Part shown: positions 1 to 29,289 of the stretch, in pieces | Layout of the letters: every line of letters begins with the position of its first letter | How positions within the stretch are numbered: the first letter of the stretch is position 1 | From: Octopus vulgaris | Taxonomy: Eukaryota | Reading direction: 5' to 3' | Assembly: GCA_951406725.2 (NCBI GenBank) | Contig: OX597815.1 | Coordinates: forward strand, 40,982,001-41,046,000 | DNA length: 64,000 bases | Program-made: the position numbers and the translations under genes | Notes under the pieces: model-generated | The model's input: only the letters and a program-made list of their open reading frames with translations | What the model was told of the DNA's origin: nothing | Databases searched by the model: none

Positions 1-2563
1 ATGAAAGGCAAAAATGAATTAAAACACTGCGATTTGCTTCCTTGTGTATGATGTACTGAACAAACATATATCAATACAACAATGATTACAATGATAAATT
101 TTGTATAAAAACTGGATAGTTAATTTTGTATAACAAAAAATTATTATATTTAAAAAAATCGTAAAGTATTCTTACCTGTTTCTTTGATTTTGTTTTTCAC
201 AATTCTTTTGACTAGATTTCGATTATAGCCCATAGATAAAAGAGCCTTAACTGTAGGTGTTTCCATACATGATGCCTTAGATTTACGATTTTTCAACTTG
301 GGAGAGCCTAAAATATAAAAGGAAATTATTAAAATGTTTCTAAAAATGTTCTAAATTTTATTTTTCAATTTAAAGTAATCTTTGACTATTTCCTAGTGTA
401 ATTTTTATCTTTTTGTTTCTGTTCATGCAGCATCATCATTTTCCAAAAAGGGTACACTGGTGCAGTATCTGATTGTTTTCTCAAGGCAGATATGAGGCCT
501 AGTGTGTAAAAGGCTTAGAAATGGGAACTGCATAGATTTGGTTTTTTTTTCCTTGGCTTCAAAACCTAAGTGACTCAACAAAATATATACAAACTTTAAA
601 TTAGCCAATGATAAATTTTGATCACTAATTTTGACACTGAAATATTATCTATATGTTTGCTTTACAAATGATATGTTTTGTCTGATTTAAAGTTCTATAT
701 TTGCCACATATATAATGAAACATATCTTCATTATTTTTATTGAATTTGCTCATCATGCTCTATTCTTGAAAAATGTTAACAGATAAACATGTATACTAGA
801 AAAAAAGAAATGAGTCAATCATGGAAAACGTAATTACTTAATATGCATACTGTAATTATGAAATGATATAATCTTACATGATATTCTTTGTGAAAAACTG
901 TGATGTGATGGTAAAAAAAAATCAATATCTTTTTGCAAATTTAATGAACTTCATTACATATAAATCACCAGAAAATAATTAAACATCTTGCATAATATCA
1001 TTTTTGGCAACTTTGTTGGCACATGCAGAAAGTTTCCTCATGCTTTCTATAATTTTGTGAATGGCTAACTTATACATTCAATTGCTTTTAATTTCTTGTA
1101 ATGTGCTGATGATTTTTTCACAATTTTGTGATATTGCAGCATTTCCTGCTCTCAGTGTCAACTGATAGTTGACATTTGCACAGCTGAGGGAAAATATTTT
1201 GCAAACTGGGCCGCGGATGCATCTCTATTAAATGTAACTTCCATATTGGTAGAAAGATATAGGGACGTTTCCTCTCTTAACCCTAACCCTTATTATAAAA
1301 GATATTTTGATAAGATCTTGTTAATGCTTCAATGATGCTGTCTAGTGATTATTAGAGCTTCTAGTTTAATTTAATTTTTTTATTGTCCAAATTCTTTCAT
1401 TATAAAAAATCATCTGTTTTGTTAAAAATAACATTTTCTTAAATGTAAGAATGTATGAAAATGATTGTATGAACAACATACTTTCCCTTATAAATAGCAA
1501 ATAACTTACTTGAAGTTAGGTTATCTGATGTCCTGTTATCTTCCATATCGTAATATCTACCAATTGCATCAATTTCAGGAGAATCGAAATCTGATCGAAC
1601 TTGTGAAGATTCCTTTAAGAGAAGAATGTAATTTCAACAAATTTATATTCTAGTAATGCTGAGTGTACACAGAAGCATACACTTCTACATATAATTAAGT
1701 GTGGATTAACAAACATTAAGTATATTGTAGCTTGTATTTAACTATATGTTCATGCAGAAGATATCCTTGGACAAACTGCCAAACATTATTATTTTAAATT
1801 GTCTTACCAAAGAATAATTTTCACAAAAAAACTATATCTTTTCAAAGTCATTCTAAATTCAGGTATGTAAGAATTAGATAATACTTTTCTGATGGGCACT
1901 AATACCACCAAAACATGCATAGAGTTGTCACTATAATTACCAAAAAAACTCAGAGAAGACAGTTTTTGTATGTGGAAGGAAGATGCATAGGATCCATAAA
2001 AACTTTAGAGATTCGAGAAATTGATTCTCTCAAATATGCCCTAGTGGTTCATTAGAGGTATATCTTGGGGACCAAATTAGTAGTGGAAGAGGATGTACAG
2101 AGAGTATGATAGCAGAATAAGAATAGGATGGAGGAAATTTAGAGAGCTATTACTTCTGTTGGCTATATCAGGGTTCTGTATCTTCTGAGAGACTTTTGTA
2201 TTGTCTGCATAGCTAGCAAGGGTCGCTACTTCAATAGCTGAGGGCATGTCGGAAAGGGCCATAACAGTGGGCTGTGGAAAACCACTGATTATTATTTGTG
2301 TTTTCTTGCAGGTGGCCCCATTGACCATCTCTACCTGACTTCTATCTTTTAGAAAGTCATGTAGCCATTCTCCAAGTTTTCCAAATATGCCACGATTTTG
2401 GAGCTTGTAACAAATCATACTATGGTTGACTTTATCAAAGGCTTTTGCAAAGTCGAGGTATATCATGTCCACATTTGAGTTGTTGAGCAGCTGCTTTAGC
2501 ACCCAGTCATAATGCTGCAAGAGCTGTGTCAGGCAGCTTCTACCTGGTTGGAAACCATGCTGG
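1..2563 (-). other. Near-identical segmental duplicate of IAP interval 35416-37977, including copies of exon 3 (1510-1612) and exon 4 (176-307); continues beyond the left edge
   Basis: Base-by-base match at offset 35415/35414 with about 6-7 differences seen. Identical ORFs at 423..608 and 35838..36023. Splice sites intact. Confidence 0.93.
2146..2563 (-). mobile_element. Duplicated copy of the CR1 RT fragment, cut by the duplication breakpoint
   Basis: Near-identical to 37560-37977. Similarity stops at gaaaccatgctgg (2563). Confidence 0.85.
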
Positions 2564-3144
2564 CCACTTGGAACCCTTCTCCAACGATGTGAAGATGATT
2601 TAGCAAAACTATTTGGGTAAAAGTGGAAGAGTCCATTGTTAAGTATAACAACACCCGATAGTCTGGTCGATACATGATAATGCCAAAAGAATCTATATGA
2701 ACCGGTTACATTATGCAAACAATATTACAAAGGAAAATAAGAATCACAAGAGAAAATTCTTACAAATTTTAGGCGAAAGAAAGCAACAACTGTAATTTTC
2801 ACAAACTGCACAAAACTATGAGGTATATAGAAACAGTAGTAGACTTGTCCGAGAGTATGCTGAAGTTTCGGAGTACCGGCTGCTTACACAAGCTTTTGAG
2901 TGAATGAAACAGGAAACTTCTTACTTGTTTATATACATACGTAAACACTAATTTTGTGATAGTGGGAAAGTTCACTTCTCTATACATAACTTCGAGAGAG
3001 AAGGTGTGTGAGAGAGAGATAGAGAGAAAGAAATGCGTTACGCTATTATTCTCTCTCTCTCTCAGTCAAGTACGCACTCGAAATAGATATGAGGAAAAAT
3101 TTTTTTTAAATATGTATGTCGTCACAATCTTCCACTCTCACATG

Positions 3145-3182
3145 CACACATACATACAAACTTACACACACACTTACACACA

Positions 3183-3267
<85 letters not shown>

Positions 3268-3268
3268 G
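3145..3268. repeat. (CA)n/(TA)n microsatellite
   Basis: Directly visible. Confidence 0.95.
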
Positions 3269-3365
3269 TATTATTGATATATATATCGTCTTCTAAGAGT
3301 TATACGTTCTTGTCCATGTTGTATTTTTCTACATACCTTAACTTAATATATATATATATATATGT

Positions 3366-3760
3366 AGGAGTGGCTGTGTGGTAAGTAGCTTACTTACGAA
3401 CCGGGTTCAGTCACACTGCGTGGAACCTTGGGCAAGTGTCTTCTACTATAGGGGCCGACCAAAGCCTTGTGAGTGGATTTGGTAGACGGAAACTGAAAGA
3501 AGCCTGTTGTATATATGTATGCGTGTGTGTATGTTTGTGTGTCTGTGTTTGCCCCCCCCCCCCCCCCAACGTCGCTTGACAACCGATGCTGGTGTGTTTA
3601 CGTCCCCGTAACTTAGTGGTTCGGCAAAGGAGACCGATAGAATAAGTACTAGGCTTACAAAAATAAGTCCTGGGGTCGATTTGCTTGACTAAAGGCGGTG
3701 ATCCAGCATGGCCACAGTCAAATGACTGAAACAAGTAAAAGAGTCAAGAGAGTAAAAGTA
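3366..3760 (+). mobile_element. tRNA-derived SINE (family A)
   Basis: Pol III-like head (gtggctgtgtggtaag...gggttcagtc), internal (TG)n, agagta-type tail. Near-identical copies at 14880, 24626 and 53760. Confidence 0.85.
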
Positions 3761-3889
3761 AACCCTCAGGCCTTCAAGCAGGCTATCCACATGCTAGAAA
3801 TAACAGCCAAATCTCACAAAACTGCGACAACATAATATAATCAATCTACACACCTTCTTGCAAAGATTTCGGAAAGGTTTTCTCCTGTC

Positions 3890-4640
3890 CTCACCATTTC
3901 CTCCCAATTTCTTTTGCTCAAAACCCCCGTTTTCGGATACGGATATTCCGGAAAATTACCAAAAATTGGCGTATTGTTAATTTCGTCCTCCACCATTCCC
4001 TCCAATTTCTTCATTTTTGATTTTTTTCCCTAACCCTAACCCTAACTACAAAAATTTTTCGAAATATTCTTCAAAATCATAATCTCCGTATTTTTCCGCA
4101 TATTTTGAAAAAAAAAAAAAATTCTGAAAAAAGTAGCCGTACACAGCGAGGGGACGGAGAAGTGTAATTTTTAGAAAGACTTCCGCCCATTCCCCTACCC
4201 CAATATTCTCCCAAATTTGTTTATTTTGTAATTTTTTTTGCCAAAAATCCCCGTTTTCGGATACGGAGGTTCTGGAAAATTCCCCAAAATCGGCATTGTG
4301 AAATTTTTTCCCCACCTTTCCCCCCCCCCTCAACTTCTTCAATTTTGACTTTTTTTCCCCCAAAACTAACCCTAAAACCCGAACCATAACACTCTTACCC
4401 CAACCCTAATCGTAACCCTAAAACCATAACCCTAAAACCATAACCCTAATCCTAACCCTAAAAACCTAACCCTAACCCTAAAACCTTAACCTTAACCCTA
4501 ACTCTAAAACCGTAACCGTAAGTACAGAAATGTTTCGAAATTTTTGTCCGAATCATGATGTCCGTATTTTCCCGCATTTTTAGTAAAAGAAAATTCTTAA
4601 AAAAAAAAATTTCCAAAGATTTCAGACTCATAATCTCCCT
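3890..4640. repeat. Degenerate direct-repeat block with telomere-like TAACCC arrays
   Basis: cccgttttcggatacgga...ggaaaatt occurs at about 3925 and about 4250. Variant (TAACCC/TAAAACCC) array at 4365-4520. Confidence 0.6.
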
Positions 4641-4644
4641 ATTT

Positions 4645-5080
4645 GGATCTTTTCGGTTTGAACGGCAGCTTTTAACATAAATTCTAGGTAACTAAAAAAT
4701 TTTAAACTTCGTATACTGGTAGAATGTGTTTATAAAACATCATTTTCTCTTGGCTTTCTTGAGAAAATTCTATAGTTTGTAACATATTTCGTCTTTAATT
4801 TCTTGCATTTCGGCAATTTTAACCAATCAATTACCTCCATTGACATAAATAACATTCTGTGCATAATGAATATGTCCCTCCTTTAAGAAGGGACATATTG
4901 GGTTTATTTACATTTATGAAGAAAAAAAGATACCCTTCCTCCCATCCCTAACCCTAACCCTAACTAACCCTAAATGTAAAATAGATTGAAATGCAATAGA
5001 TCGATACTCGGGTCATAATTATGGGTGACAATTTCATATGATACCACTAGAAAAAACTGCCGTTCAAACCAAAAAGATCT
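4645..5080. mobile_element. MITE with about 28-bp GGATC-type TIRs and internal (TAACCC)n
   Basis: 5' ggatcttttcggtttgaacggcag / 3' ctgccgttcaaaccaaaaagatct. Related partial copy at 7131-7506. No TSD recognisable at this copy. Confidence 0.75.
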
Positions 5081-6975
5081 TAAAACAAAACAATGTGAAA
5101 ACATTGCGGGAAATTCCCATATTACTGGGGCTGGTGGGTAATTGAAATCTTGAAAATGCAATTTTTTGAAATCTTATTTGGCATAACTTCAGCGTAAGTA
5201 CCGGAAGTACCGGATACATTTCAAGAAAGTTTTTTTTTTTTATATATGGGGGGTTAGGATTAGGGTTAGGGTTAGGGTTAGGGGTGGGAGAAAAAGGTTT
5301 CTGTTATCTTCAGAAATGTAAACAAAGTCACGTGTGGGATCTTTTCCTTTTGATGGACGGAATTTCTAGTTAACTAAACAATTTGAAACTTCGTATACTG
5401 GTAGAATGTGTCAAAAGAAAACATTATTTTCACTTGGCTTTTTTGAGAAAATTGTAATTTGTAAGTTTAACGTAGTTTAATTCTTCGAATTTTAACCAAT
5501 GAAAAGATCCCACGTGTGTACCTATACCGAAGGATCACCACTTATTTTTCAGAATTGGATTCTCCTTAACCAAAAACGTGGGATTCCATTAAAAAAAATC
5601 AGTATATATATATATACATTTTACCGGAAGTTATGACGTAAAAATCGGATCTTATGAATTTTTCGAAAGTCTCCCTCCCCACCCACTCCCAGGGTCGTCA
5701 GTTCGCATTTTTTTCATATTCGTTTTCCACATAGTTGCTTACGCCCATGAGACTGGTTAATTTTTTTTTCTTTTGTTCCCGGGTGAGGGATTGACTGATT
5801 TCTCTGGCTAATATATGTACAGTATATCACGGGTTTCTGATTTTAATTATTTCTGTAGTAAAATAAGCATTTTCACTCTTAAAAATTAATAAAATAAAAA
5901 ATAAAAATACAGTACAGTACTGCATTGTATGACACATTAATTAAAGTATATTAAAGTATATCCCTAACCCTAACCCTAACTAACCCTAAATGTAAAATAG
6001 ATTGAAATGCAATAGATCGATACTCGGGTCATAATTATGGGTGACAATTTCATATGATACCACTAGAAAAAACTGCCGTTCAAACCAAAAAGATCTTAAA
6101 ACAAAACAATGTGAAAACATTGCGGGAAATTCCCATATTACTGGGGCTGGTGGGTAATTGAAATCTTGAAAATGCAATTTTTTGAAATCTTATTTGGCAT
6201 AACTTCAGCGTAAGTACCGGAAGTACCGGATACATTTCAAGAAAGTTTTTTTTTTTTTATATATGGGGGGTTAGGATTAGGGTTAGGATTAGGGTTAGGG
6301 GTGGGAGAAAAGGGTTTCTGTTATCTTCAGAAATGTAAACAAAGTCACGTGTGGGATCTTTTCCTTTTGATGGACGGAATTTCTAGTTAACTAAACAATT
6401 TGAAACTTCGTATACTGGTAGAATGTGTCAAAAGAAAACATTATTTTCACTTGGCTTTTTTTGAGAAAATTGTAATTTGTAAGTTTAACGTAGTTTAATT
6501 CTTCAAATTTTAACCAATGAAAAGATCCCACGTGTGTACCTATACCGAAGGATCACCACTTATTTTTCAGAATTGGATTCTCCTTAACCAAAAACGTGGG
6601 ATTCCATTAAAAAAAATCAGTATATATATATATATACATTTTACCGGAAGTTATGACGTAAAAATCGGATCTTATGAATTTTTCGAAAGTCTCCCTCCCC
6701 ACCCACTCCCAGGGTCGTCAGTTCGCATTTTTTTCATATTCGTTTTCCACATAGTTGCTTACGCCCATGAGACTGGTTAATTTTTTTTTCTTTTGTTCCC
6801 GGGTGAGGGATTGACTGATTTCTCTGGCTAATATATGTACAGTATATCACGGGTTTCTGATTTTAATTATTTCTGTAGTAAAATAAGCATTTTCACTCTT
6901 AAAAATTAATAAAATAAAAAATAAAAATACAGTACAGTACTGCATTGTATGACACATTAATTAAAGTATATTAAA
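4946..6975. repeat. Tandem duplication, unit about 1016 bp
   Basis: 4946-5961 repeated at 5962-6975 (identical ORFs 4970..5161 and 5986..6177), with few differences. Confidence 0.9.
5337..5510. mobile_element. Short GGATC-ended MITE nested in another MITE, 8-bp TSD CACGTGTG
   Basis: cacgtgtg-GGATCTTTTC...GAAAAGATCC-cacgtgtg. The empty site is seen in the related host element at about 52565 (cacgcatg). Confidence 0.85.
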
Positions 6976-7130
6976 AGAAAATACGTAGTGTACCGTAGAT
7001 GCGTAAACAAAGAATCGCACATACTGTATGGAAAATGAAACTCAGGAGGCGAGTGTGTGGTGTTGTTTTGCATTCATAATAAAATAAATAAATACAAATT
7101 ATAATAATAATAAATATACAGTGCAATAAT

Positions 7131-7506
7131 GGGTAACTAAAAAATTTTAAGCTTCGTATACTGGTAGAATGTGTTTATAAAACATCTTTTTCTCTTGGCT
7201 TTATTGAGAAAATTCTATGGTTTGTAAGATATTTGTTGCTTTTTTTCTTCAATTTCTGCAATTTCAACCAATCACTGATGTCTATTGAGGTAAAAAACAT
7301 TCTGTGCCGTATGAATATGTTCCTCGTTTAAGAAACAGATTGGGTTTATTTACATTTGTGAAGAAAAAAAGATACCCTTCCCCCCATCCCTAACCCTAAC
7401 CCTAAAACAGATTGAAATGCAATAGATCGATACTAGGGTCATAATTATGGGTGACAATTTCATATGGCACCGCTAGAAAAAACTGCCGTTCAAACCGAAA
7501 AGATCC
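7131..7506. mobile_element. 5'-truncated GGATC-family MITE with (TAACCC)n
   Basis: Collinear with 4687-5080; ends ctgccgttcaaaccgaaaagatcc. Confidence 0.75.
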
Positions 7507-9329
7507 CAATACTGTTGCTACTTCACGGATTGTCTCCTATCGCAGTGGATTTTGCAACGTAACACTCGCTATATTTGAGGAATTATTCTACTTCCGAGGT
7601 GACGGAATTGTTACAGCATCAGAAAAAAAAAACAAAAAAAAAATCTTTGCAAGTATGCTTTCCAACTCTTTATGTTCTGAGTTCAAATCCCATTGCAGTT
7701 AACTTTGCTTTTCAGCTTTCCAGGATGAATAAAATAAATTACCTGTCAAGTACTGATGGCGATGTAATCAACTAGTCCCCAGCCCTCAAAATTGCTGACT
7801 TTCAGTTTAAAACAAAAAACATAATTTTTTGCATTGTCAGCTCTAATGGAGTTCACAGGTAGTCAGTGAAACGACTACACCTTAGTCACAGATATGTTTT
7901 TGAGCTGTTCCCAATTAGAGGACAAGGTGGAAGAAATAGTAATAAGAAGACCGAAAAAGAGTTTAGGTCCTCAGCTTTTACTAACTGGTCTGTGGTAATG
8001 ACTCTACAACTGAAACTTGTACTAACAATTCGAGATGAATTGCCTAAAACAATGGTTCTCAACTAGTTTTTGTCTATGGATCATTTTGATTCTTATCTTA
8101 TTCTATGGACCCTTGTTGCCATTCGGTGTTTAAAAAGATCCTATTGTATTTTTATAATTAAATATTGGGAATCGTATAAAAAAACCATGGGGGATTCAGG
8201 GCACTTCAAATTTGGTGGGCCTCTCATCTTGGCAAACTAGTCAATTATAACCTGAAAAGCCATGTATTGCATGTAATGAATTTGATGTGTTAGCAGAGAA
8301 AGGTTAAAATAAACAAAAAAAAAAACAAGTGAAAATATCGCTTTATAGATACACTTTTCAAAATTCAAATTTTTTCTCTCACACATCCATTAGCAGTGTT
8401 TGGCTTTTCATTCACTGTGAAAAAAGTACAATGAAGGAGGGAAGACAAGATAAGATATTTTTCTCTAATGCAAGTTACATATGTTTCAGAATGTAGAATA
8501 TGATAAAATGACAGAAAATTATGAAAAAGGGGAGTATATCATTTTAGTGGCTGCTGCTGTTCCAAAGGCTCAATGAGGTGTTGGGGGAGACAAACATTTA
8601 AAACAGATGGATTAAAAAAAAATTTGTTTTAAAAAAGCCTCTTTTCATTGTTTTGCAATATATGAAAGAAAGGGGAAATCCAGATAAAAACTGAAAATAT
8701 CAACATATATGACAACTATTCTAAAAGTCTGCTTTTCCAGTTTCTTGTAAGGAGTGGTGAGGCACAATGAATAATATTTACTGTATTTCTGACTTAGAGA
8801 AAGATAAAAAAAAATTCTGCTGTGGATGACTTTGCCTTTCGTCTTTATGGAGGTTAATAAAATAAGTACCAGCTGAACACTGGGGTTGATGTAACTGACT
8901 TATTCTCATCTTGTGAAGTTGCTGGCCTTATGACTAAATTTGAAACCAATATTTTGGGAGGAAAATTTCTTCGTAAAAGGAAATTCTTTTATATTTTAGA
9001 TATAAGGCTGTTGAAAACAACACCTGTAGTATTTAATTATGTATTGTACACAGAAATATGGTACATTTTCTGCATTATGTTGTTTGTTTATGTCCCCATA
9101 ACTTAGCTATTGAACAAAAGATTCTGATAGAACAAGTATCAATTTCTACAGTATCAAGTCTAGAAGATTCCCCCCAAGATAGAAAAACCCAGAAGCCTTT
9201 GAAGTGAACCACTTGAGCATTATCTCCAAACTCAAATTCTCTTAGTCCTCTAACCCTTTCCAGTGCAAGCTTCCTTAAGAATTCAAATAGGACTTTACTT
9301 TTATCTGATACAACTAAAATCCTTTATAG

Positions 9330-12158
9330 CATAGATAGCAAGCAGGGTACAAATTGTTGTCCTTAAATGCTCGCAGTTTATGCAACAAAATACATTTGTT
9401 CAACTCCTACGTCAGAAGTATTGACCCTGACTTCATCACTGTCACGGAAACATGGGCACATTCCTTACTCTGTGATGGGGTTTTCAACATTACTGGGTAC
9501 AATCTCTTCTGCAAGGACCGCATTAACCGCCGTAGTGGTGGTGTGATGGTCTACGTTCGTTCAAATTTTTCGGTAATTCCTTGTACTGATTTGAACGAAT
9601 CACAAGAAGAAGTGACGTACGTATGACCATGTCAACACTTCTGCTTGGCGTTGTTTATCGTCCCCCAAATTACCATCAAGACACACAGCTATGCGATATC
9701 CTCCGAGCTGCTGCCAGGAAAACAGCCACTTATGTTTTTATTGCAGGCGATTTCAATCATCCTGAGATCAATTGGGAAACCTTCCATTGGCCACAGAGCG
9801 CAAAGGATTTCGTTGAGCTTGTACTGGATTCAAACTGGTCACAAGTAGTCACCTCTCCAACAAGAGGCGACAACACCTTGGACCTGCTCTTCACCACAAC
9901 TCCTGAAGTGGTTATCAATTATACTACGGAGGAACCTCTAGGCGACTCTGATAATGCTATGATCATCGCCAATCTGGCTCTTGCGGGCAACAACAAAAAC
10001 CTGAACCATCTCCAATCTGCTTCCTTCGATTGGAACCTGTACCACACTGAATTACAGCACCCAAACATGAATTCTACAACTCTGGAGATGTGAATACTAT
10101 ACTCCAGAGTATCCTGGACTCAATATGGACAGCATGTGCAGCATCAGTGCCACGTAAACAGAAAAAGAAGAACTGCCCCAAAAGTGCAATTTGGGAAACT
10201 TCAGCGGTTCGACTTGCCAGGAAGGAATGTCGGACTGCTGAACGGGAATACAAGTTGCATAAATCAGACACCAACAGGAAAAAGCGGAATAAATCTTCCA
10301 ACCATCTCAAGCAAGTGACAAAAAGCAGTGCTTGAATTTGAACAGTGCATAGCAGCCAATCCTGACAGCAAGGTTTTCTGGAAATATGTGCATTCGAAGC
10401 AGAGACCTCACTCTCCAGTGGGCCCTCTTCACAACCCTCACACAAACCAGATCACTGATGATCCCAAGGAATGCACAGAACTCATTGCCGAGTGCTACGC
10501 AAACATATTCACTGTTGAAAATTAAAATGTACCATCTTCACCATCTCTAACAGCAAATTCCATAACAACTATGGAATTTACACCTGCAATGCTGCGATGT
10601 CACCTTCAAAATAAGTGCAACTATGCCTCCCCTGGTCTTGATGGAGTTATATACCTGCTTCTCAAATGTGGCAGGTACTTCCTTTTACACCAGCTTTCTA
10701 TTTTTTTCCAGTACTGTCTCAACAATGGTGCTACTCTGGAGCAGTGGAAAACTGCCAGTGTCATTCCTCTGTTCAAAAAGGGCGACCGCACATCACCTGT
10801 CAACTATCGCCCAGTCAGTCTCACTAGCTGTATTGCAAAACTGATGGAATCGTGTGTCAGAGAAACACTTTGGAACTTCTGGAGCTCTCACAGTCTCATC
10901 CGACCCTCACAATATGGATTTGTCCCTAACTCCAGCTGCAGTGATCAGCTTGTCGAGTTCCTTGAGGACATTACTCAGATCACTGACAGTGGCTCATGGG
11001 TGGATGTTGTCTACCTTGACTTTGCTAAGGCTTTCAACTCTGTGCCACACAAAAGACTTATGGTGAAACTCTCTGCAATGGGTGTGAGGGATGATCTTTT
11101 TTAACTGGTTGAAATCCTTCATTCTCAGCCGAAAGGAGGTAGTCACAGTTCTAGGACAGCATTCTACACCATATGAGATGTCATTGGGTGTACCACAGGG
11201 ATCTGTCCTTGGTCCCCTCTTGTTTGTGGCATACATTAATGACATAGATGCCAATTTAAAGAATGCCACAGTATTGAAATATGCAGACGACATCAAGCTG
11301 TACCTTGAAATCAAGAGGACAGATCCTGTTGTCTACAGCTCTTTTCTGCAATCAGACCTGGACACAATGCAGCAATGGATCTCAGACTGGCAACTGAAAC
11401 TGGCTGTGGACAAGTGTACCATCATGCATTTTGGGAGAAAAAACCCTGCGTCCACATACTCCCTCCACAACACTGATATCAAGAAATCCTCTTGCGAGCG
11501 TGACCTAGGCATCACTGTCAGCAGTGATTTGCGTTGGACAAAGCATATCTCTAAAACTGTCAAGAAGGCCGAGGGTGTCTTGGCATCACTCAGCAAGACT
11601 TTTGTTAGCCGCTCTCCAGCCATCTATTTAAAACTGTATACAGCTATGGTACGACCACACTTGGAATTTGCATCATCAGTTTGGAACCCCTATCTTGCTC
11701 AGAACATTGACCTCCTGGAATCTGTTCAGAGACGTGCAACCAAACGCATACCCTCCATCAGACACCTACCATACTCTGAGCGCCTTGTTTCCCTGGGCAT
11801 GGATTCACTGAAGCTCTGGCGTCTGGCGACGGACTTGGTAAACACCCACAAATTTATCAACCACCTCACCAACAACAACACAGAACACCTTTTTGATCTC
11901 CATGTGTCTAACACACGTGGACATGCCTACAAAGTCAGAAAACAACACAGCTCCCATGACTTTCGGAAAACATTTTTTCACGCTCAGAGTTGCTGAAGCA
12001 TGGAACAAACTGCCTGCGTCAGTTGTTGACTGCCATGACACTGCATCCTTTAAGGCCCTCATGCTTTCCGAAATCCGCCGAAACTAGACCTGATTATACA
12101 TACACTTTAGATGAGTTGTAGTGCACCTGGGCACTGTACACAATGTTTTTATTATTAT
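9330..12158 (+). mobile_element. CR1-clade LINE, near-complete ORF2 (APE endonuclease + RT) with frameshifts and stops
   Basis: LNARSL, VTETW, GVVYRPP, GDFN, LDLLF (APE); YRPVSLTS, VVYLDFAKAF, GVPQGSVLGPLLF, YADD, RPHLEFA (RT), spread over ORFs 9354-12087. Ends in a (TTA)n-like tail. Confidence 0.93.
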
Positions 12159-12599
12159 AGCAAAACATGATAGACATTTTGGAATGGAATTAAACAGAGC
12201 CATAAGAGGTTTCCCTGCTCAAACACATGATAACATTAATAATGAGGTCAGCTACATAGCATTTTAGATATACTACCCAGAGTAGCTAAGAGAAATGCTG
12301 CTGTAACTATTTAAGATCATTTCCAACTTCCAACTTCCTATTTCACATCCATCAACCACTTGGTATGTAGAAAAAGGTGTTGGTAGAAGTTCCTTTCTGT
12401 GTTCTCAGTGCAATCTATGAACACATAAGAGGTGCATTAGTCTCACAGGAAGGTTAACAGAGAAATTGTGTGGCAGATGTGCATATACATCTAATACCTA
12501 TTTTCCTATCTTTGATCTCATTGTTTATATAGACATATTCATATACAAAAGATGTCTAAACTTTTAGTTCTGGCTCTACTTTAGAAAATTATTAAATAG

Positions 12600-13432
12600 C
12601 ACTCCTAATTTTTCTCTTTCTCTAAAAAATCCTGGGTTTGGTTGAAAAAGGATGATTAGAAAAAGAAACAGGGAGCTTTATTAAAGATGCTCAAATCAAA
12701 CACTGCAAATAAACAAATTTTGAAAATATGTGTTTGAGGAGAAGGTGTCAGTAGAGTGTATGGACTTTGGAATGAAATAATGACACGCACTATTGCAGAA
12801 TGCCCCAAGTTGACCCTGAGAGAATATAAGAAATAGAGACATGGTCAAGTTGTAAGCATTTTACACTGGAAGCTTTATCAAAATTTGGGGTTTGAAGCAG
12901 GAAGTACATGATACAATCATCATGTAGAAAGAGTACATGAGGTGGAAACATGCACAATTTTGTAGAATTTTCTAATTCAAACAGACAAAAAAATGGAACA
13001 TAATGATCCACATACAAAGTAACAGACAAGGAAAATTGTATTTGTTTACTGATTAATCTGTCATGTCTATTCGATACCAGGAATTTGATGAAAGCAGATG
13101 AAAAGTCGAAGAAGTATAACTCCCTTAAAACTTGAGATTGTAAAGATTTGGAACCTGATATCTGTCAAAATTGTACCTGTGATAATTGGTACATTAGGGA
13201 CTGTAAAGGATGAAATAAACAAATGGGGAAAGGAGATTGGGGTGGAATGTCCTGTAGAGCTTCTACAGAAGGTTTGTCTCAAAGGAACAGGAAAGGTCAT
13301 TGGAAAGGTTCTGAGCATTTAATGGCTTATTTAAGTCATGGAGATCTTAGGTTAGAGGGAGAAACTCACTATCCATATAAATTCTACCAGGAATAAGACA
13401 AATCCTGAGTCAAGGTAATAATAATAATAATG
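12600..13432 (+). mobile_element. R4/Dong-clade LINE 3' fragment (restriction-like endonuclease, (TAA)n tail)
   Basis: EIVKIWNLISVKIVPVIIGTLG...LQKVCLKGTGKVIGKVL, a decayed CCHC region, and a terminal taataataa run. Confidence 0.7.
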
Positions 13433-13487
13433 ATATAGTAGACAGGGGAAGAGAGAGAGAGAGAGAGTAAGAAGGTGGACAAAACGA

Positions 13488-13720
13488 AGGCGGCGAGCTG
13501 GCAGAATCGTTGGCACACCGGGCGAAATATTTAGCGGTATTTCGTCCGTCTTTACGTTCTCAGTTCAAATTCCACCGTGGTCGACTTTGCCTTTCATCCT
13601 CTCGGGGTCAATTAACTAAGTACCAGTTACGTACTGGTGTCGATGTAATCGACTTAATCCGTTTGTCTGTCCTTGTTTGTCCCCTCTATGTGTAGCCCCT
13701 TGTGGGCAGTAAAGAAATAA
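13488..13720 (+). mobile_element. SINE (family B)
   Basis: ggcgagctggcagaatcg...gttcaaattcc...gtcgactttgcctttcatcc. Related copies at about 7670, 8815, 47340, 52690, 53512 and 61440. Confidence 0.8.
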
Positions 13721-14559
13721 GAAGGTGGGCAAAAAGAAGAGAGGGAGATGACATGCAATTGGATAGATTGTAATGGTCTGGAGCAGACATATGGTGGTAG
13801 AGGAGAGATAATTTGTTGGCTCAGGAGGATGATCAGTGTAAAATATGGGTGGAGAACACAGTATTAAGAATGGAAAATGAATGTCAGTGAAATGGTTTTG
13901 GGTGCTGAGAAGGGTGGGGGAGGGGGGTAAGTGGTATCATGGCAAAGCTGAAACATGCAGTTCTGCTTACATTTAATTAAAATCAAAATACATGGGACCA
14001 AGAGGTATTGCAATCTCAGAGTCGCATTTGGTACATGACCTGACAATCCACATGTATAAATTGCATCGTATTAAGATAGCAACAATGTGCAAATGACTGG
14101 CTTGTTGAATTCTGAGATCAATCAGAATGAAAAACAGAAGGAAACCATACTGAACTGTGAACACAATTGTTCTCAAACACCTGGAAACTAATACTCCCAG
14201 TAATTTTGTTAAGGTTATGTGTTAAGTGCATAATATGAAAACTATCAACCAAAAACAGTACTGGGTGGGGAAATGGGTTTGAAAAAAATTCATAAATTTT
14301 CGAATTTTTATTTTTTTCACTGTGAATGAAAGCTTGCTTTTTTTTTTTAAAGTACATAGTGGAAAAATTCTTTGGACAAAATCGGTCAGGTAGTGGGTAG
14401 CGGTTCATAAATTTTCAATAATTTGATTTCATAAAAAGCTTCCTTCCATCATTTCCAAGGGTGTGATGAAAAACAAATTTGAAAAATCCCCGTCAAAACA
14501 AAGAAAATCCAACTTATGTGGGTGTGCTATTCCAAAAATCCACCAGGGAATTCTCTTGT

Positions 14560-14858
14560 GATAGATACCTGTTGTTTGTTTGTTCCTTCTCGAGCCATGC
14601 CTGGCTCATAAGGGCCGGTTTCCTGGTTTCCGTGGTGTATAGGTTCCCCACCTGGACGGGATGTCGGTCCGTCGCAGGTGAGCTACAAGATGCAGGAGGA
14701 AAGAGTGAGCGAAAGTTGTGGCGAAGGAGTCAGCAGAAGTTCACCGTTACCTTCTAATGGAGCTGCGTGGACCTTAGGTGTTTCGCTCATAAGCACACAC
14801 ATCGCCCGGTCTGAGATTCGAAACCGTGAGTCCGCTGCTCTAACCATTAGGCCATGTG
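14560..14858 (-). mobile_element. tRNA-derived SINE (family C)
   Basis: Minus strand starts tggcctaatggttagagc...ggtttcgaatc (A/B-box-like), followed by a non-tRNA body. Confidence 0.65.
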
Positions 14859-14879
14859 TTTCTTACCACACAGCCAAGG

Positions 14880-15258
14880 TTGGCTGTGTGGTAAGAAGCT
14901 TGCTTCCCAACCATATGGTTCCGGGTTCAGACCCACTTCGTAGCACCATGGGTGTCTTCTACTATAGCTTTGGGCCAACCAAAGCCTTATGAGTGGATTT
15001 GGTCGATGGAAACTGTATATATATATGTGTGTGTGTGTGTGTGTTTGTCCCCCACCACCACCGCCATCACTTGACAACCGATGTTGGTGTGTTTATATCC
15101 CAAAACTTAACGGTTCAGCAAAAGACACCGATAGAACAAGTACTAGGCTTACAAAGAATAAGTCCTGGTGTCAGTTTCTCTGACTAAAGGCGGTGTTCCA
15201 GCATGGCCACAGTCAAATGACTGAAACAAATTAAAGAAAATGAAAAAAATAAAAGAAT
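14880..15258 (+). mobile_element. SINE family A
   Basis: Collinear with 3366-3760. Confidence 0.85.
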
Positions 15259-15488
15259 ATAAATATCAAAAAGCAGTTTTCAAATTTCCCTTTTTATTAT
15301 GCAATAACTGTGCAAATAATATTTCCATAATTCTCAATTTTAATGTGTATTTTGACTAACATACAGCAACAACCATAGATACATATTAATTATAAGAATG
15401 GAATAAACAGATGTGTTTCAAGAGGAACAGCTGGGATTTCATCTAACTGGTTATATGATATATATATATATGATATATATATGATATA

Positions 15489-15541
<53 letters not shown>

Positions 15542-15666
15542 CATACTGGTGTCTGGTGCAGCCATCTGGTTCACCAGACCTCAGTCAAAACGTCCAACCC
15601 ATGCTAGCATGGAAAGCGGACGTTAAACGATGATGATATGTGTATATATATATACACACAAATACA

Positions 15667-16795
15667 TATTTGAACTCTTTGAATGCACTTTCAGCATCAA
15701 TTTGATTAATGAACTCTTTCTCTCGCAGAAAACCATCAAGGTGCTTGAAAAAGTGGTAGTTGGTAGGAAAAAGGTCTGGAGAATAAGCTGGGTGGGGAAG
15801 AACTTTGTAGTGAAGTTCCCTCAACTTCTGGAGCATCATTAGTGAAACATGTGGTCAAGCATTGTCATGAAGAATGATTGACCCTCTTCTGTTGACCAGT
15901 TCAGGACAGGAGTAGCAGTTTTTGTTCGTTTTGGCAATTTTATAGTAATATGTTTCTGCAGTAATGATTTTTCTGGGTTTTAAGAAGTTATAGTGGATGA
16001 GTCCAGCAGTACACCAGCAAATAGTCACCATAACCTTCTTTCTGAAGAACTCAGATTTAGGGAAGGTTTTTCGGTGCTTCATTTTGGTCCAACCACTGTG
16101 AAGAACGTTTTTTACTGTTGTACAGAATCCACTTTTTATCGTAAGTTACAATACAATCGAGAAATGGATTGGTCTGGTTACGGAGAAGAAGCGCCGAGCA
16201 AATTTCATATCTGTGCATTTTCTGATTTTCATTCAAATTGTGTGGTACCCATTTGTTGAGGATTTTTGATTTTCCAATCACATGCAAATGGAAGAAAGGA
16301 AGAACTTTTGGCTGACTTGAAGTTCTTTTGCCAGTTTTCAACTGGTTTTACATGGATCTTTCTCAATGACTGAGGTGGAAACATGCACAATTTTGTAGAA
16401 TTTTCTAATTCAAACAGACAAAAAAAATGGAACATAATGATCCACATACAAAGTAACAGACAAGGAAAATTGTATTTGTTTACTGATTAATCTGTCATGT
16501 CTATTCAATATCAGGATTTTGATGAAAGCAGATGAAAAGTTGAAGAAGTATAATTCCTTAAAACTTTGTCAATGACAGATGGGCATCTATTACACTCATG
16601 ATCTTCAAAGCTCAGACCACCGCTGCAAAATCGTTTAAGCCATTTTCGAGCTGACCTCTCACTGGTCAATTTCTTACCAAACGTTCTGTTGATACTGCAG
16701 GTAGTTTCAGCTACTTTATGTCCTTTTTTGAAGTTGAATAGCAAAATTATTTGAATATCGTGCTTTGAGTGTTCCATTTCAGATGATTGTAACAA
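15667..16795 (-). pseudogene. Decayed mariner (Tc1/mariner, DD34D) transposase
   Basis: WVPHNL, TYDKKWILY, HDNA and HPAYSPDL motifs, plus an N-terminal HTH (ILLFNFKKG...ERSARKWLKRF). Frameshifted and interrupted at 16371-16566. Confidence 0.9.
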
Positions 16796-17025
16796 CTAGG
16801 TCTTTATTGCCCACAGGGGACCAAACATAGAGGGGATGATACAAATGAGGGAATGGGGTCGATAAAACAAATGACTTTTAAAAATTTATATAAATCGGAT
16901 GATAACAAACAAGAACCTCATGCCTCAGCCTCAGCGCATGTCTGTGCATCAATTCACACTGATTTTTATTTTCCCCAAATCAGAACTACTGATGCAAAAA
17001 TAGATAATGATTATGAGCCAGGCTA

Positions 17026-17870
17026 TGTTGTAGGGAAGGACCAGAAGTCCTGTTGGAAGTGGGGCCTGTGGGTCCCACTGGAAGGGCTGTGGTGGGCATG
17101 CAAAGTCAGCGACGCATGAGCAGTCAGTTGGCGGTGAACAGCGCATGAGAGCAGATGTGTTAGACGGTACAGCGGGACAGCGCATGTGGACGTTGAGTGA
17201 ATCTTGTAGATCGAGACACAACACATGGATGTTCAGAATGACCCTTTTCCAGACTGACAGGTAAGACTACTGCAATTCTTTCTTTGCTTCTGTCTTTTTC
17301 CTCCTTCACAACAGAAGCTATTTCAGTTCAAAAAGGAAAAAAAAATGATGGGTTTGGTCCATGTTTCAAATGAGACAGTTAGGCCATTTTGCAGCAAGAG
17401 AGATGTCACTGCTTGACTGCAAAAAATTAAGTTGGTGGCAAAACTCCAAGGTATAGATGACCTAGTGAGTTTCATACCACTGTACCTCAATGTAGAAATG
17501 AGTTGCGACGTCACTGGTGCCAAGTTGTATCAGCCTTTGCCTTTCCCTTGGATAACATCGGTGGCATAGAGAGGGGAGGCTGGTATGTATGGGCGACTGC
17601 TGGTCTTCCATAAACAACCTGGCCTGGACTTATGCCTCAGAGGGTAACTTTCTAGGTACAATCTCATGGTCATTCGTAACCGAAGGGGGTCTCTGACCTC
17701 GGATCGGTGTTAGCACCTTACCTGGAAATAGAGGAGAAGGACCAGTTAAGCCAGAGAAAATAGAAAGCCGGCTGATGGAGGCTTTTATAGAAGGGCCATT
17801 TATGACATATGGTCGATTGGGGAAAGCAAAGTGGACAGGTGAACAGATCGATGTATAGCGTACGCATGAG
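17026..17870 (+). mobile_element. Gypsy-like LTR retrotransposon remnant: LTR (17026-17223), degenerate PBS, gag fragment split by an inserted repeat (about 17490-17700)
   Basis: TGTTGT...ACAACA termini; tggatgttcagaa resembles a TGGTGTCAGAA PBS; peptides LQKIKLVAKLQGIDDLVSFIPLYL and YLEIEEKDQ...KIESRLMEAF resemble retrotransposon gag as I recall it. Confidence 0.5.
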
Positions 17871-18641
17871 GGAAATTCCTCTCTCTCTGTTATATATACA
17901 TAAATATATGGACATAGTAGGTAACAGCTAGCTTTCGGCCACCCTTTTGGACCCTGATGTGTCCACTACTCTGATTAGTTGGTATTAGTGTAATTTGTCT
18001 CTTGCTCTATTGTGCACCAATATGCAACCCAACCAATCGCAGCCTTCAAATAAAGTCATGTGAGACAGTCTCTTCTAAACCTCCGATGAGGTGACTGCTC
18101 CCTATAAAACTCTAGCTTCACATCGAGTTGATGTCTTTTGGTTCAAAATCTTTTAAGGTCTAGCCACTGACCACACAGGACACAGCCAGTTCCAGTGACA
18201 ACACCACAGCAGCCACATAGAGACTGATCAACTTCATCCAGCAGCATTCAGCGACTTCCATCTCTGTTGCCACCATTCATCCTAACGTCAACATCATCTC
18301 TCTACGTACACAGCAACCAGCAACACTCACACAGGTTCCAACACAACACTGTTTGTGAATTGCATGACCATGGTTAGCAGCAAATACAACCTGCGAGAAC
18401 TTCCTGTACCAAGTGACCAGCAGCAGCATCGTAGCCACAACTTCTTGATACAGCATTTCAACTATTGTGTACTTTGACTATGAACTGGTATTTATCATCC
18501 TTGTATCTGAACATTCTTCTAATGTTATATTATAGACTCTTTCAATGCTCTTGACATAACACACATGCATACAGCCATGCCTATGCACACACACACTTTG
18601 TTCTCATGATGGTCTGTCTATTATTATTAACCCTAACCCTA

Positions 18642-20030
18642 ACCAATTTGGAATATTCAGCACAATAACAACTTGAAATCGCTCCACCATGTTATCATGC
18701 AATGATTGTAAATAGTTGCAATATGTAGTTAAATCTTCATCAACCAATTCATCTTTCAAAGAATCAAGTTGTGGAAATTGATGGAATTGACGTTTTGAAA
18801 TGTTAGTCTTATACAACACCAATTTCAAAATGAAGGTAGTGACAAACGGTTTACAATCAACGAGAATTTTTCTGTTTCCTTGAAATATTCAAATCATTTA
18901 ATTTTGTGGATATATCACAAAAGAAAAAAGATATCACACCTTGCAGCCATCAATGAAGTGGATAGTGGAGTATCTTCAAAGAAAGAGATGATTTTATGAA
19001 ACAATTCAACAAAGCATAAAACACAGTTTCCTTTTGACAGCCACCACACTTTGGTATGGTATAAGAGTTTAGTATAGTCCTCATCATTTCTCAGAGTTGA
19101 TGGAAAATTCAATCAGACAAGGGACTGGACTTCAATTTGTTCACAGTCATGATAACTAACTGTAGTGCATCATTCAATCTACTATTCATATTTTTTGCCA
19201 CTAAATGCTGCCGGTGTGCCAAGCAATGGACAGTTAGTATCTGGTGGGAAATTTTGTGCTTTAGGAGAGATGAAAATCCTATCATTGAAGGGACTCCATC
19301 AGATGCACAGGCAAGAATATTGCTGAGTGGGATATTATGTTTAAAAAGAAAAGACTTGAGAGTGTGAAAATAGTTGCACCTTTTGAATCAAGCAGCAATT
19401 TCTCTGTGAACAGCATTTTCTCACAAGGTTGAAGGTCTTCGCTGAAATAACAAATATATACCATCATCAAGCATTAATTGTCCACAACAGTTGACTCATC
19501 CACTTGTATAGAAAATTCAGAACACTGGAGAATATTAATGAGCTGATGTTTGACTTCGTTGGCCATTTCATCCATGCTTCAAGAAATTGTGTTATTACTA
19601 AATGGGATCTTCATAATGATATCGGGTTTTTCGTGCATAACAGTTGACAAAACCTCTTCAATAACTGGGTGAAGTAATGTTTCTCCAATTGTGTGAGACT
19701 TCCCAGACTTAGCAGCAAGCAATGCAATGTTGTTCGATGCAATCATCCTATCATTCTCCTGTTTACTAGTTTCCTGGAGTAGAGTGTTGAATGTTTGTAT
19801 TTGCTTTTTGAAAGAGGAGCTCAGTAGCAAAAAGTATGACAATGGCTTGTCCATCTTGTCAGAATGCTCTGCACCAAAGTGATACTTCAAGCGTGAAGGT
19901 TTCATTGTTCAATGTTTGATGGCAAATAAGGCACATTGGTAACTGACAGTTCTGAGGAGAGCGAATAAATCCAAACGATAAATAATCACAATTGTACTGT
20001 TGACAAATTTTCTTGACTGGAGGCATCAGT
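18642..20030 (-). pseudogene. Decayed hAT (Buster/Charlie, ZBED5/SCAND3-like) transposase
   Basis: CLICH...MKPSRLKYHF, KSHTIGETLL, FSIQVDEST, HCLAHRQHL, LLYHTKVWWLSKG and YLQSLHDNMVERF in several frames. Confidence 0.88.
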
Positions 20031-21087
20031 AAAATAAAAATGTGAAAACGAATTTCTACAGGCAGCGTCAGAAAGGTAGTGTGGTATTCCCAATGAGAAG
20101 AAACCAATATACGTCTCTACTAGAGCAAATACAGATCTAGTTCGTTTGACTTCCAGCATTTCAAAAATTAGAGTTTATCAAAAATTTTTAAATTAGGCAC
20201 ATTAATATAGCTTTCCAAGCTAAACTGCTGGAGTTATTCAACTTTTTGCTGGAGTTATTCAACTTTTTCCAGAAAAATGTTTTTAAAAAGTTATAGAGGT
20301 TTAAAGTTTGATCATTTTCTTCCAGTCAAGAAACACGATTTCAAAGCTGTCCTTTAGTGTGTGACTGCACATTTTGACAACATCCTGAAAATAGCACTTG
20401 TGTTTTGATATGAAACCACAGAATTATGCATGACCTGTAATCCCTCATAACTTTTTTATTTTTCAGAGTTTCCAGAAAATTTTTATGAATTTGAATTCTA
20501 TACATGGAACTTCATGTAATTATGCCAAAATAAAAAAAAAATTGTGGTAGAGTGTAATTTAAGGCTTAGGCCTATTTGGCTGCTATTTTTAGCACACATG
20601 ACAACCATCTCAATGACTGTGACAAAAATATTTGTTAAACAAGTCTGCTTTTTTAATACAAACCGACGTCTCATGCGAGTAGTCAAATCAATGTAAGTGC
20701 ATCCTTATTCTAGGCATGCGTAGATACAAGTAAATGCAGACTTAACTTCTAAAAATTTATTGTCATCCACAGAATGTTCATATTGCTTACCATTTTCTAG
20801 AAATTAGCCCATCACCCACTTTGGGAAGCTAATTAATCTGTCAAATGTAATACCTATTTGCTCACGTTATTTTGAATTATTCAGGTTCACAATATTTGCT
20901 TGTAACTTTGTAACTTTTTTACATACAGATTTGAAATTTTGTCTGTTGGTGCTTTATATACCACTGATTTACTGTTATGTAACTTTAGCTGATCTTGCTG
21001 TGTAAATTTGACTTTTATGAGCAAGTAAATTCAATTAACAGGTGTTAAAGCATTAACATTATGGCTAAATACTAAAATTGAAATTCT

Positions 21088-21831
21088 GGATTTTTACCTT
21101 TTGACCGACAGATTTAAACAATAATTTTTTGTAACTAAACACTTTCAAACTTCGTATACTTGTAGAATGTGTCACATAAAACGTCTTTTACTCTTGGCAT
21201 TGTTGAGAAAATTCTTGATTTTGGAAGTTATTTCTTGTTTAAGTTGTATTTCAGTAATTTCAACCAATCAATGACATATATTCAGCTGAATAAAATTACT
21301 GCTGTTGTTTGTCAACAACAGCTTCCGGCAGAGTATATTTCGTTTGTCACTGTTATTTACGACATATTTCATCTCAATTACGTTTGTATGAATAAACAAG
21401 TGTATCAGAAGCATGTTTACTTCATGGCACCACCATAATCGTTTGTGTTTCATTTTCCCTTTTTTTCTGTAACTCTAACCCTAAAACCTTAACCCTGACC
21501 AAAACCCTAACCCGAAAACCTTAAAGCTAAAACCAGTACAAATGCATGAACGATGTCATAAATAACAGTGACAAACGAAATATACACCGCCGATAGTTGT
21601 TGTTGACAAACAATGGCAGTAATTTTATTCAGCTGAATACACGTCATTGATTGGTTGAAATTACTGAAATACGACAACTTTAACAAGAAATAACTTCCAA
21701 AATACAGAATTTTCTCAACAATGCCAAGAGTAAAAGATTTTTTATGCGACACATTCTACAAGTATACAAAGTTTGAAAATGTTTAGTTACAAAAAATTAT
21801 TGTTTAAATCTATCTTCAAAGGTAAAGATCC
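21088..21831. mobile_element. Foldback MITE with about 280-bp TIRs, central TAACCC-type repeats and an 8-bp TSD (gaaattct/aaaattct)
   Basis: Mirror ORFs 21169..21438(+) and 21507..21752(-). GGATTTTTACC / GGTAAAGATCC ends. Confidence 0.88.
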
Positions 21832-23049
21832 AAAATTCTTAATGCATCTTACCTGTTTGATTTGCCACTAAAATTATCCCAGACGGCAACCAACAAAACT
21901 TTTGCCACTTTTCAAGATGAGGTACATTAGCTTGAATTAATTAAAATACAGGTATACTCAGTACAAGATTTTATTCTTTCGGTAAATATTTTGTACCTTG
22001 ATGTGGAATAATTTTTCTCCAGTTTTTTCAGATGCATTCAATGTATCTGACCTCCATACCCACTGCAAGCCACTTTTTTCCAGAAAAGAAAGGGAGTTTT
22101 GTTGTGTAGGTTTTTTTTTCATTTCCAGGTTATTTTGTATGCTTTCAATGAATCTGACATCGAAATCATGCATAAATGGTTTGTTTTTCTTGAAAAGGAA
22201 AGATTTGGCTGCTATTTCTAGCATGCCCTGCTACCACATAATAATTATTTGTGTTCACACTGAAATATTTACCAACTTCTTTCTTTCCATTTATTTTTTC
22301 CATTTTACGGAAAACAATATTTTCTCAAGCAATAATAAATCTCTGAACGAGATGTAAACAGTAACTGCTCGACAACGTAAAGTATAATAGCCATCTCAAT
22401 ATGGCTAACCATTAAGGGTGGTTATTACTGTAGCTTTTGTCCCAGGAGATCATTGTCTCCAGCTTGCTTTAGGCACACTTTCTGTGCCAGTTGACATCTA
22501 CCTTAGTAAATTTTGTTTTTCTCTCAGTTCTGTGCTTTCTGGAAGAAAAGCCCTCACATTATCTCAAAGCTACAAGAATTCACTATTGTGATTTTCTTAT
22601 CTCTTAAAAAGATTTCATAGAGGAATTAGATTCAAAGGGTTTTGGTTGGTTTAAACACTAAATTGTCAAAAAGTGCCAAAACTATAAAATCAGCTTTTTG
22701 GCTCTTTTGAGGTCTTTAGAATCCCAAAACTATAGTCTTTTTTTTTGCTTAGAGTTAAAAAATGCTGATTTTATAGTTTTAAATTTCAAAGGGCCTAAAA
22801 AAGGCTGATTTCATAGTTTTTGCCCTCTTTTAGGTCTTTAAAGGCCAGAGGAGGATAAAAAAAACTAAAAATATAAAAATAAAAAACTATGAAAAACACG
22901 ATATGTACATAATTTAATTTTTCCTCTTCTTCACCTTGGTTTTGTTGATGAGATTCATGTTGCCCTTCATGAAAATTAACATTCTAGGATGATCAGTTGG
23001 CACTGCTCCTGAATTTATTGCTTCAATAACATTTCTTAAATTCAACCTT

Positions 23050-24520: not shown

Positions 24521-24552
24521 ATTCCATCATTTTTCTCATTTTTCACACATAT

Positions 24553-25239
24553 ATTAGAGATATAATATTTTGAAATAGAACCTGAATATGTTTTGGAACA
24601 ATTGTAAATCTGACGATTGCATATACTCTTTTTTTACTCTTTTTACTTGTTTCAGTCAGTTGACTGCGGCCAGGCTGGAGCACCGCCTTTAGTCGAGCAA
24701 CTCGACCCCGGGACTTATTCATTGTAAGCCCAGTACTTATTTTATCGGTCTCTTTTGCCGAACCGAACCGCTAATTGACGGGGACATAAACACACCAGCA
24801 TCGGTTGTCAAGCAATGCGAGGAGGACAAACACAGACACACAAACACACACGCATATATATATATATACATATATACGACAGGCTTCTTTCAGTTTCCGT
24901 CTACCAAATCCACTCACAAGGCTTTGGTCGGCCCGAGGCTATAGTAGAAGACACTTGCCCAAGGTGCCACGCAGTGGGACTGAACCCGGAACCATGTGGT
25001 TGGTAAGCAAGCTACTTACCACATATGTATTTATATATGTATATACATAGGTATACAGTTGTGTATATGTATATATATTGTAATCTTCCAATACTGAAAC
25101 ACACGTATGTAGTTCCTTCATATTTAATAAATATAAGTATTAACTAAAGTATGATATAATTAACGAAGTATATTATATACCCAGCTGGTAATTTTGGTTA
25201 TATTCTTAAAGTATTATTTCGTGATGTGTAAACTGATAC
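24553..25239. repeat. AT-rich dispersed repeat (possibly a Penelope-type terminal repeat) split by a SINE
   Basis: Matches 28885-29140 directly and 28296-28560 in inverted orientation. Confidence 0.7.
24626..25022 (-). mobile_element. SINE family A
   Basis: Reverse complement of 3366-3760; short catat duplication at the flanks. Confidence 0.85.
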
Positions 25240-28198: not shown

Positions 28199-28328
28199 AT
28201 ATATATTCAATTTTTGGGGATTAATTGATATGCGGGTATTCTATTTCAGATAACACAAAAATAACCTAATAAGTATATCTGACAGTAAACTCTTGGTATC
28301 AGTTTGCACATCACAAAATAATACTTAA

Positions 28329-29140: not shown

Positions 29141-29142
29141 GA

Positions 29143-29173
<31 letters not shown>

Positions 29174-29289
29174 GAATGGCATCTAAAACCATATAAACCA
29201 TGCTAATTTAATGCAGCAAGCTTTCCATATCTGAGCAAATAAGGACAACCAGAAGATCATTTCTCTGAATCCTTTTGTAGGCTACTTTG

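Follow-up and report, generated by a model that had tools for sequence, protein, structure and literature searches.

What becomes of a gene when a tandem duplication copies only its 3′ half? The question is raised by a 64,000-nucleotide stretch of Octopus vulgaris DNA (contig OX597815.1, positions 40,982,001 to 41,046,000; hereafter the window), whose left edge carries a second copy of the 3′ exons of an inhibitor of apoptosis (IAP) gene, which we call IAP-A. The initial annotation had described this copy as a recent duplicate devoid of BIR exons and offered three explanations for it: an alternative C-terminal cassette of the parent, a nascent gene for a UBA-RING protein, or a haplotype left uncollapsed in the assembly. 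We find that the copy is the edge of a much larger duplication that places the first, non-coding exon of a neighbouring paralogue, IAP-B, upstream of IAP-A exons 3-6, and we put the probability that the resulting promoter-swap chimera is transcribed in carriers at roughly 0.6.

A head-to-tail duplication at the IAP-A locus

The window was extended by 200 kb to the left and 150 kb to the right (414 kb in total); coordinates are window positions, and negative values are the G000:C2 position minus 40982000. IAP-A is a minus-strand, six-exon gene running from 49692 to 31973 and encoding a 594-aa protein near-identical to protein P0001, which is named from Octopus sinensis. The protein contains four BIR matches, a BIRC2/3-like UBA domain and a C3HC4 RING (Pfam zf-C3HC4_3 and UBA_BIRC2-3 above cut-off) and, having at least one BIR domain, belongs to the IAP (BIRC) family. 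Its UBA (residues 448-489) and RING (residues 543-587) both lie downstream of residue 424. The exons of the parent and of the copy, and the duplicated unit, are as follows.

48672..49692, minus strand: IAP-A coding exon 1 (BIR domains), parent, outside the duplication
38499..38680, minus strand: IAP-A exon 2, in which the last BIR ends, outside the duplication; joined to exon 3 in 4/4 RNA runs
36924..37026, minus strand: IAP-A exon 3, parent
35591..35722, minus strand: IAP-A exon 4 (UBA), parent
34447..34596, minus strand: IAP-A exon 5, parent
31973..32169, minus strand: IAP-A exon 6 (RING, stop), parent
1510..1612, minus strand: copied exon 3, with a Met codon in frame (parent residue 424), a weak ATG upstream of it in another frame, and Pro to Leu at 1518
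176..307, minus strand: copied exon 4 (UBA), same sequence as parent; exons 5 and 6 (RING) further left, outside the window
2562..37977, no strand: right-hand duplication unit; the left unit runs from G000:C2:40949263 to window 2563

Self-comparison aligned window 1-2563 with 35416-37977 at 99.73% identity, with six substitutions and one one-base indel (at 775, 1010, 1033, 1036, 1055, 1518 and 2106), in line with the six or seven differences counted initially; the single coding one within the window is the CCA-to-CTA change at 1518 in exon 3. The match itself therefore stands as first described, and its extent does not, since 1-2563 is just the edge of a 35.3-kb head-to-tail duplication whose units run from -32737 to 2563 and from 2562 to 37977. 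Between these units there are 200 substitutions and 49 indels, with a divergence of 0.93% over 2562-22000 and 0.125% over 22000-37977. The right-hand unit alone contains a tandem duplicate of about 1 kb (4944-6975, 99.3% identity), and the left unit alone an 885-bp insertion near C2:40962624-40963509.

As had been expected, the two copied exons in the window keep intact GT/AG splice sites, copies of exon 5 and of the RING exon are present to its left (C2:40981032-40981181 and C2:40978559-40978755), and both BIR exons fall outside the unit. The copied RING is the same as that of the parent. Its exon has lost the first AG of a tandem acceptor, a second AG following three bases on and in frame, and copied exon 5 carries a Gln-to-His change; altogether, copy and parent differ by two non-synonymous and zero synonymous coding changes, too few to test selection.

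The junction in DNA sequencing runs

The breakpoint had been placed within a CR1 relic of intron 2. The corresponding features are these.

2562..2563, no strand: duplication junction between IAP-B intron 1 and IAP-A intron 2, with a 2-bp microhomology (GG)
2077..2563, minus strand: truncated remnant of a long interspersed nuclear element (LINE) reverse transcriptase, within intron 2 and cut through at the breakpoint (Pfam RVT_1)

The relic is a reverse-transcriptase remnant by its Pfam RVT_1 match (E 2.5e-9), and it is possibly of the CR1 type. The other side of the junction is a dispersed repeat with at least 38 further matches. Homologous recombination was rejected as the origin of the duplication because the breakpoints have just 2 bp in common and sit in unrelated repeats, and the event may instead have been microhomology-mediated. 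There is no N gap at the junction, the sole gap in the 414 kb lying at -86302, 89 kb away.

The stretch is present in 20 listed runs from nine studies, of which four DNA runs (X1, X2, X5 and X7) were compared. A 452-letter contig from X2 (record 16) bridges the junction from its first letter, with 42 letters to the left and 377 to the right. The X1 contig to the right of the junction (record 8) begins exactly at the microhomology, which is where a contig would be expected to start if two left neighbours converge there. Corresponding contigs from X5 and X7 run unbroken from normal flank, 148 and 239 letters further out, and the contigs of these two of the four runs contain that flank only and no junction. 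Since the duplication is seen in two of the four DNA runs, it is probably polymorphic or confined to one population.

Relative depth of the IAP-A exon 3-6 region over paralogue-B contigs was 1.99 in X1, 0.84 in X5 and 0.85 in X7, and must be read in the knowledge that contig depth is a poor measure of copy number, which counts against our interpretation. The numerator used six of the eight listed long contigs per run over the copied exons, excluding the contig that paralogues also match and the one to the right of the junction, and the denominator used contigs matching paralogue-B letters (n=3, 7, 5). The X1 ratio fits a homozygous carrier. X1 and X2 differ in sample and study code, and either may be the assembled animal. 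On these observations we are nearly certain that the 35.3-kb duplication is real and young.

Individual differences between the units are less diagnostic. Among the four DNA runs the Leu letter at 1518 was found in X2 only, and the copy letters at 775 and -1397 (C2:40980603) occur also in X7, a run without the junction; some unit differences are therefore standing alleles, and the splice junction is a better test of the copy than the Leu codon. The loss of the acceptor AG at the RING exon appeared in none of these runs; in X1 the site is covered by a paralogue-B contig only.

The duplicated unit contains the first exon of IAP-B

Paralogues B (-38252 to -45589), C and D lie further left, all on the minus strand. 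The ATG exons of all three start with a splice acceptor and must therefore be preceded by non-coding exons. Just within the left end of the unit is a block common to B, C (twice) and D; in a genome search it was restricted to the cluster, with five matches.

RNA identified this block. Eight runs that contain the stretch are presumed to be RNA, although not recorded as such, and four of them (X9, X15, X16 and X20), which behave as spliced RNA, were compared over 1400-3140; the evidence consists of assembled contigs, which lose rare forms, from animals whose genotypes are not recorded. In contigs from X9 and X15, which belong to two studies, a donor at 2764 is spliced to the IAP-B ATG exon, the loose end of the contigs being the first 30 letters of that exon (-38214), and an X16 contig likewise stops at 2764. 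The left breakpoint thus falls in IAP-B intron 1, 200 bp below an IAP-B 5′ untranslated region (5′UTR) exon. The upstream ends of the RNA contigs, at 2881, 2896 and 2922, hint weakly at a start site. A donor near 2925 was also considered for the upstream exon of IAP-B and ruled out, as the RNA contigs use 2764. Because the unit spans the whole stretch from the IAP-A 3′ end to the 5′UTR exon, any promoter there was copied too.

2764..2922, minus strand: duplicated IAP-B 5′UTR exon, without ATG, same in both units; donor at 2764, upstream end approximate
2923..3140, minus strand: likely IAP-B proximal promoter, duplicated; several inter-unit substitutions from 2925 on
1613..2763, minus strand: predicted chimeric intron, 1,151 bp, GT...AG, made of 200 bp of IAP-B intron 1 and 950 bp of IAP-A intron 2

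Two further features of the upstream region may be recorded. Immediately upstream of the 5′UTR exon, 2950-2980 contains adjoining putative GATA-like and kappaB-like motifs; the copied promoter retains the GATA-like site intact, and the left unit carries an altered form of it. At 7584-8184, inside the duplicated unit, is a second cluster-specific conserved non-coding block, found upstream of B, C and D, which is possibly an enhancer or an alternative exon; it was considered first as the promoter, and the chimera does not require it.

A predicted promoter-swap chimera

The copied 5′UTR exon lies 1,151 bp from copied exon 3, as compared with 5,678 bp for the native IAP-B intron. This exon and its donor match the active original exactly, and the downstream splice sites and reading frame are intact. 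As in a tandem-duplication chimeric gene, the 5′ portion of one gene is fused at the junction to the 3′ portion of a second gene in the same orientation, usable splice sites are present, and the head-to-tail duplication behind the junction exists in real DNA. The copied IAP-B promoter would fire, and the 2764 donor would splice to 1612, yielding a chimeric mRNA composed of the IAP-B 5′UTR exon and IAP-A exons 3-6. The nascent BIR-less gene suggested by the initial annotation is thereby supported in its structure and supplied with a promoter source, the first exon and upstream region of IAP-B, while its transcription and its action on the parent are predicted.

Translation of the chimeric mRNA would start at the in-frame Met of exon 3, whose ATG has G at -3 and +4, following leaky scanning past the weak upstream ATG. 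The latter opens a frame of 17 codons, compared with 24 in the parent, because the change at 1518 creates a stop in that frame. From the exon-3 Met the main frame is open for 170-171 codons, or 170 with the second RING acceptor, and the predicted 170-aa product contains the whole UBA and RING and no BIR. It is therefore not an IAP by definition, in contrast to the BIR-UBA-RING architecture that IAP-A shares with cIAP1, cIAP2, XIAP and BIRC7-type IAPs. It does have the make-up of an IAP-type UBA-RING module, with a C3HC4 RING, an aromatic C-terminal tail residue and a preceding UBA. The closest solved relatives of the RING are those of cIAP2 (E 7.7e-20) and cIAP1, the tail Phe lining up with theirs, and judged by its sequence the product may work as an IAP RING module does.

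If made, the short protein may form RING dimers with IAP-A and IAP-B while binding neither caspases nor BIR partners, and such pairing would hasten the turnover of full-length IAPs in carriers or titrate them. This is weakly inferred, by analogy across phyla, from the literature on cIAP1 and cIAP2 RING dimers. Excerpts of the relevant papers state that the cIAP1 RING must dimerise, that its tail Phe acts in trans and that BIR3-UBA-CARD restrains dimerisation (PMC6349121); that cIAP2 degradation requires cIAP1 and RING dimerisation (PMC3172091); and, in a review, that RING-mediated homo- and heterodimers regulate IAP stability (PMC3901146). No CARD was detected in IAP-A, so cIAP1-style autoinhibition may not apply. 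The full proposal, that a segregating newborn gene makes a BIR-less UBA-RING protein from its neighbour's promoter and that this protein is a working antagonist driving the turnover of the cluster's IAPs, seems to us rather doubtful.

Competing explanations

A number of observations weigh against a transcribed and active chimera. The splice from 2764 to 1612 appears in the contigs of none of the four RNA runs (X9, X15, X16, X20), and unspliced contigs of X15 and X16 cross the breakpoint into normal flank without a fork, a pattern that fits non-carriers and a silent copy alike. In each of the four RNA runs exon 3 is spliced to its neighbours, exons 2 and 4, and the joins of exon 2 to exon 3 distinguish parent from copy by one letter only. 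The exon 3 acceptor is AAG; a crude scan showed two YAG acceptor-like sites upstream, near 2608 and 2237, but no AATAAA within the predicted chimeric intron. From 2925 on, several positions distinguish the copied promoter from the original one, the first acceptor AG of the RING exon has been lost, and the out-of-frame upstream reading frame could lower translation or trigger decay. The X2 contig that bridges the junction has a depth of just 2.82. Finally, the effect of a RING-only protein on IAP levels enters the proposal as general background.

It is possible, if on balance unlikely, that the duplication is real and the chimera silent or ineffective, through a weak promoter, a mis-spliced or decayed transcript, or a protein that destroys itself; in that case it would be a copy-number variant, neutral or mildly deleterious, in the course of turning into a pseudogene. 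The missing chimeric joint, the upstream ATG and the lost RING acceptor favour this explanation, as do the coding differences, within the limits of so small a number. Excerpts of a Drosophila yakuba survey place tandem-duplication chimeras at lower frequency than whole-gene duplicates (PMC5460883). A weak comparative point is that six of six octopod proteins with a RING of the IAP-A type, drawn from 22 candidates, have a BIR, so that no BIR-less relative was found among them. Against silence stand the first exon and donor, which are the same as in the active original, the open splice sites and frame downstream of them, and the X1 depth ratio, which is compatible with a homozygous carrier.

It is very unlikely that IAP-A uses the copied exons as a 3′ cassette, whether alternative or read-through, by splicing exon 2 (as had also been suggested) or a later donor to 1612. 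The phases of exons 2 and 3 agree, and a public automated model, P0007 (867 aa), chains parent and copied exons into one gene. However, to make a near-identical protein, different at only 2-3 residues, such a transcript would have to bypass four intact exons and the 3′ end of the parent across 37 kb. The acceptor has a closer donor, equipped with an upstream region of its own, at a distance of 1.15 kb, and P0007 is a hypothetical model in which both RINGs are broken.

An assembly artefact in which two haplotypes were set in tandem is now highly improbable and largely refuted: although the divergence between units (0.125-0.93%) is patchy and allele-sized, certain unit differences appear as alleles in junction-free runs, and a true gap and satellite arrays lie 89 kb off, the junction is gap-free and is crossed by a read-assembled X2 contig, and X1, from another sample and study code, breaks exactly there with about twice the relative depth, where an uncollapsed haplotype predicts single-locus depth, no excess and no junction-crossing reads.

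Comparison with known systems

The class of mechanism is already known, both for tandem-duplication chimeras and for truncated duplicates that dampen their parent. In D. yakuba, according to excerpts of the survey, 24 of 76 tandem-duplication chimeras changed expression, as against 5 of 66 whole-gene duplicates (PMC5460883). There, as here, duplication in tandem without regard to gene boundaries fuses a gene's 5′ end to the 3′ end of the adjacent gene, and such variants segregate in populations (PMC5460883, excerpts). Unlike in D. yakuba, the expression of the octopus chimera is predicted, its 5′ donor supplies a non-coding exon only, and its parents are paralogues of one family, so that the outcome is domain loss plus promoter swap.

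CHRFAM7A (dup-alpha7) is, in the excerpted account, also a recent partial duplicate of 3′ exons with an oligomerising product, and its truncated subunit co-assembles with the parent and dampens it (PMC8998457). The octopus copy has likewise kept an oligomerisation domain and lost the N-terminal functional domain. CHRFAM7A is an expressed and tested receptor subunit (PMC8998457), whereas the octopus copy is a predicted ubiquitin-ligase fragment and, with 0.1% divergence over the gene part, looks much younger.

Molluscan IAP families likewise grow by tandem duplication and shuffle their domain architectures, as stated in parts of an oyster survey (PMC8917759). By those parts of the text, the survey removed proteins without a BIR, and BIR-less offspring were thus excluded by design. 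In the literature searched (main texts) we found no publication on the octopus IAP-A/IAP-B locus, nor any that combines Octopus vulgaris copy number variation with inhibitor of apoptosis genes.

Other features of the cluster

Within IAP-A intron 1, 46148-46636 is a partial copy of the BIR exon (about 94% DNA identity to 48873-49248, open for 162 aa) and probably an older internal duplication. A CpG-rich segment at 54860-55000, with a strong donor near 54876, is a candidate first exon of IAP-A. An isoform named from O. sinensis, P0008, combines an IAP-A body with a B-type RING exon, which reflects either a sharing of exons among neighbouring genes or an artefact of annotation.

Paralogue C (G000:C2:40889700-40912700, L011-L014) spans the sole N gap as well as satellite arrays. 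A search of this region gave no RING exon for it, and its relative P0010, named from O. sinensis, likewise stops after exon 2. The 5′UTR-exon block is tandemly duplicated upstream of C (G000:C2:40921294-40922683). Upstream of D (G000:C2:40868166-40868337) the homologous donor is GG, not GT. A fifth BIR-bearing paralogue lies beyond the 414 kb, at G000:C2:40769302-40773122.

Implications

The public 867-aa model P0007 merges the parent gene with its partial copy, and molluscan IAP surveys count only BIR-bearing genes, so that BIR-less offspring of tandem arrays are overlooked. The locus described here offers a resolved breakpoint, a donor exon defined by RNA, likely carriers as well as non-carriers, and one diagnostic splice junction. 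It thus makes it possible to ask directly if a truncated paralogue with a swapped promoter is expressed from its birth, and if IAP levels in an animal are lowered by a RING-only IAP fragment. If the proposal is correct, the chimera would be a natural RING-only anti-IAP caught at birth, and tandem IAP arrays would spawn their own regulators.
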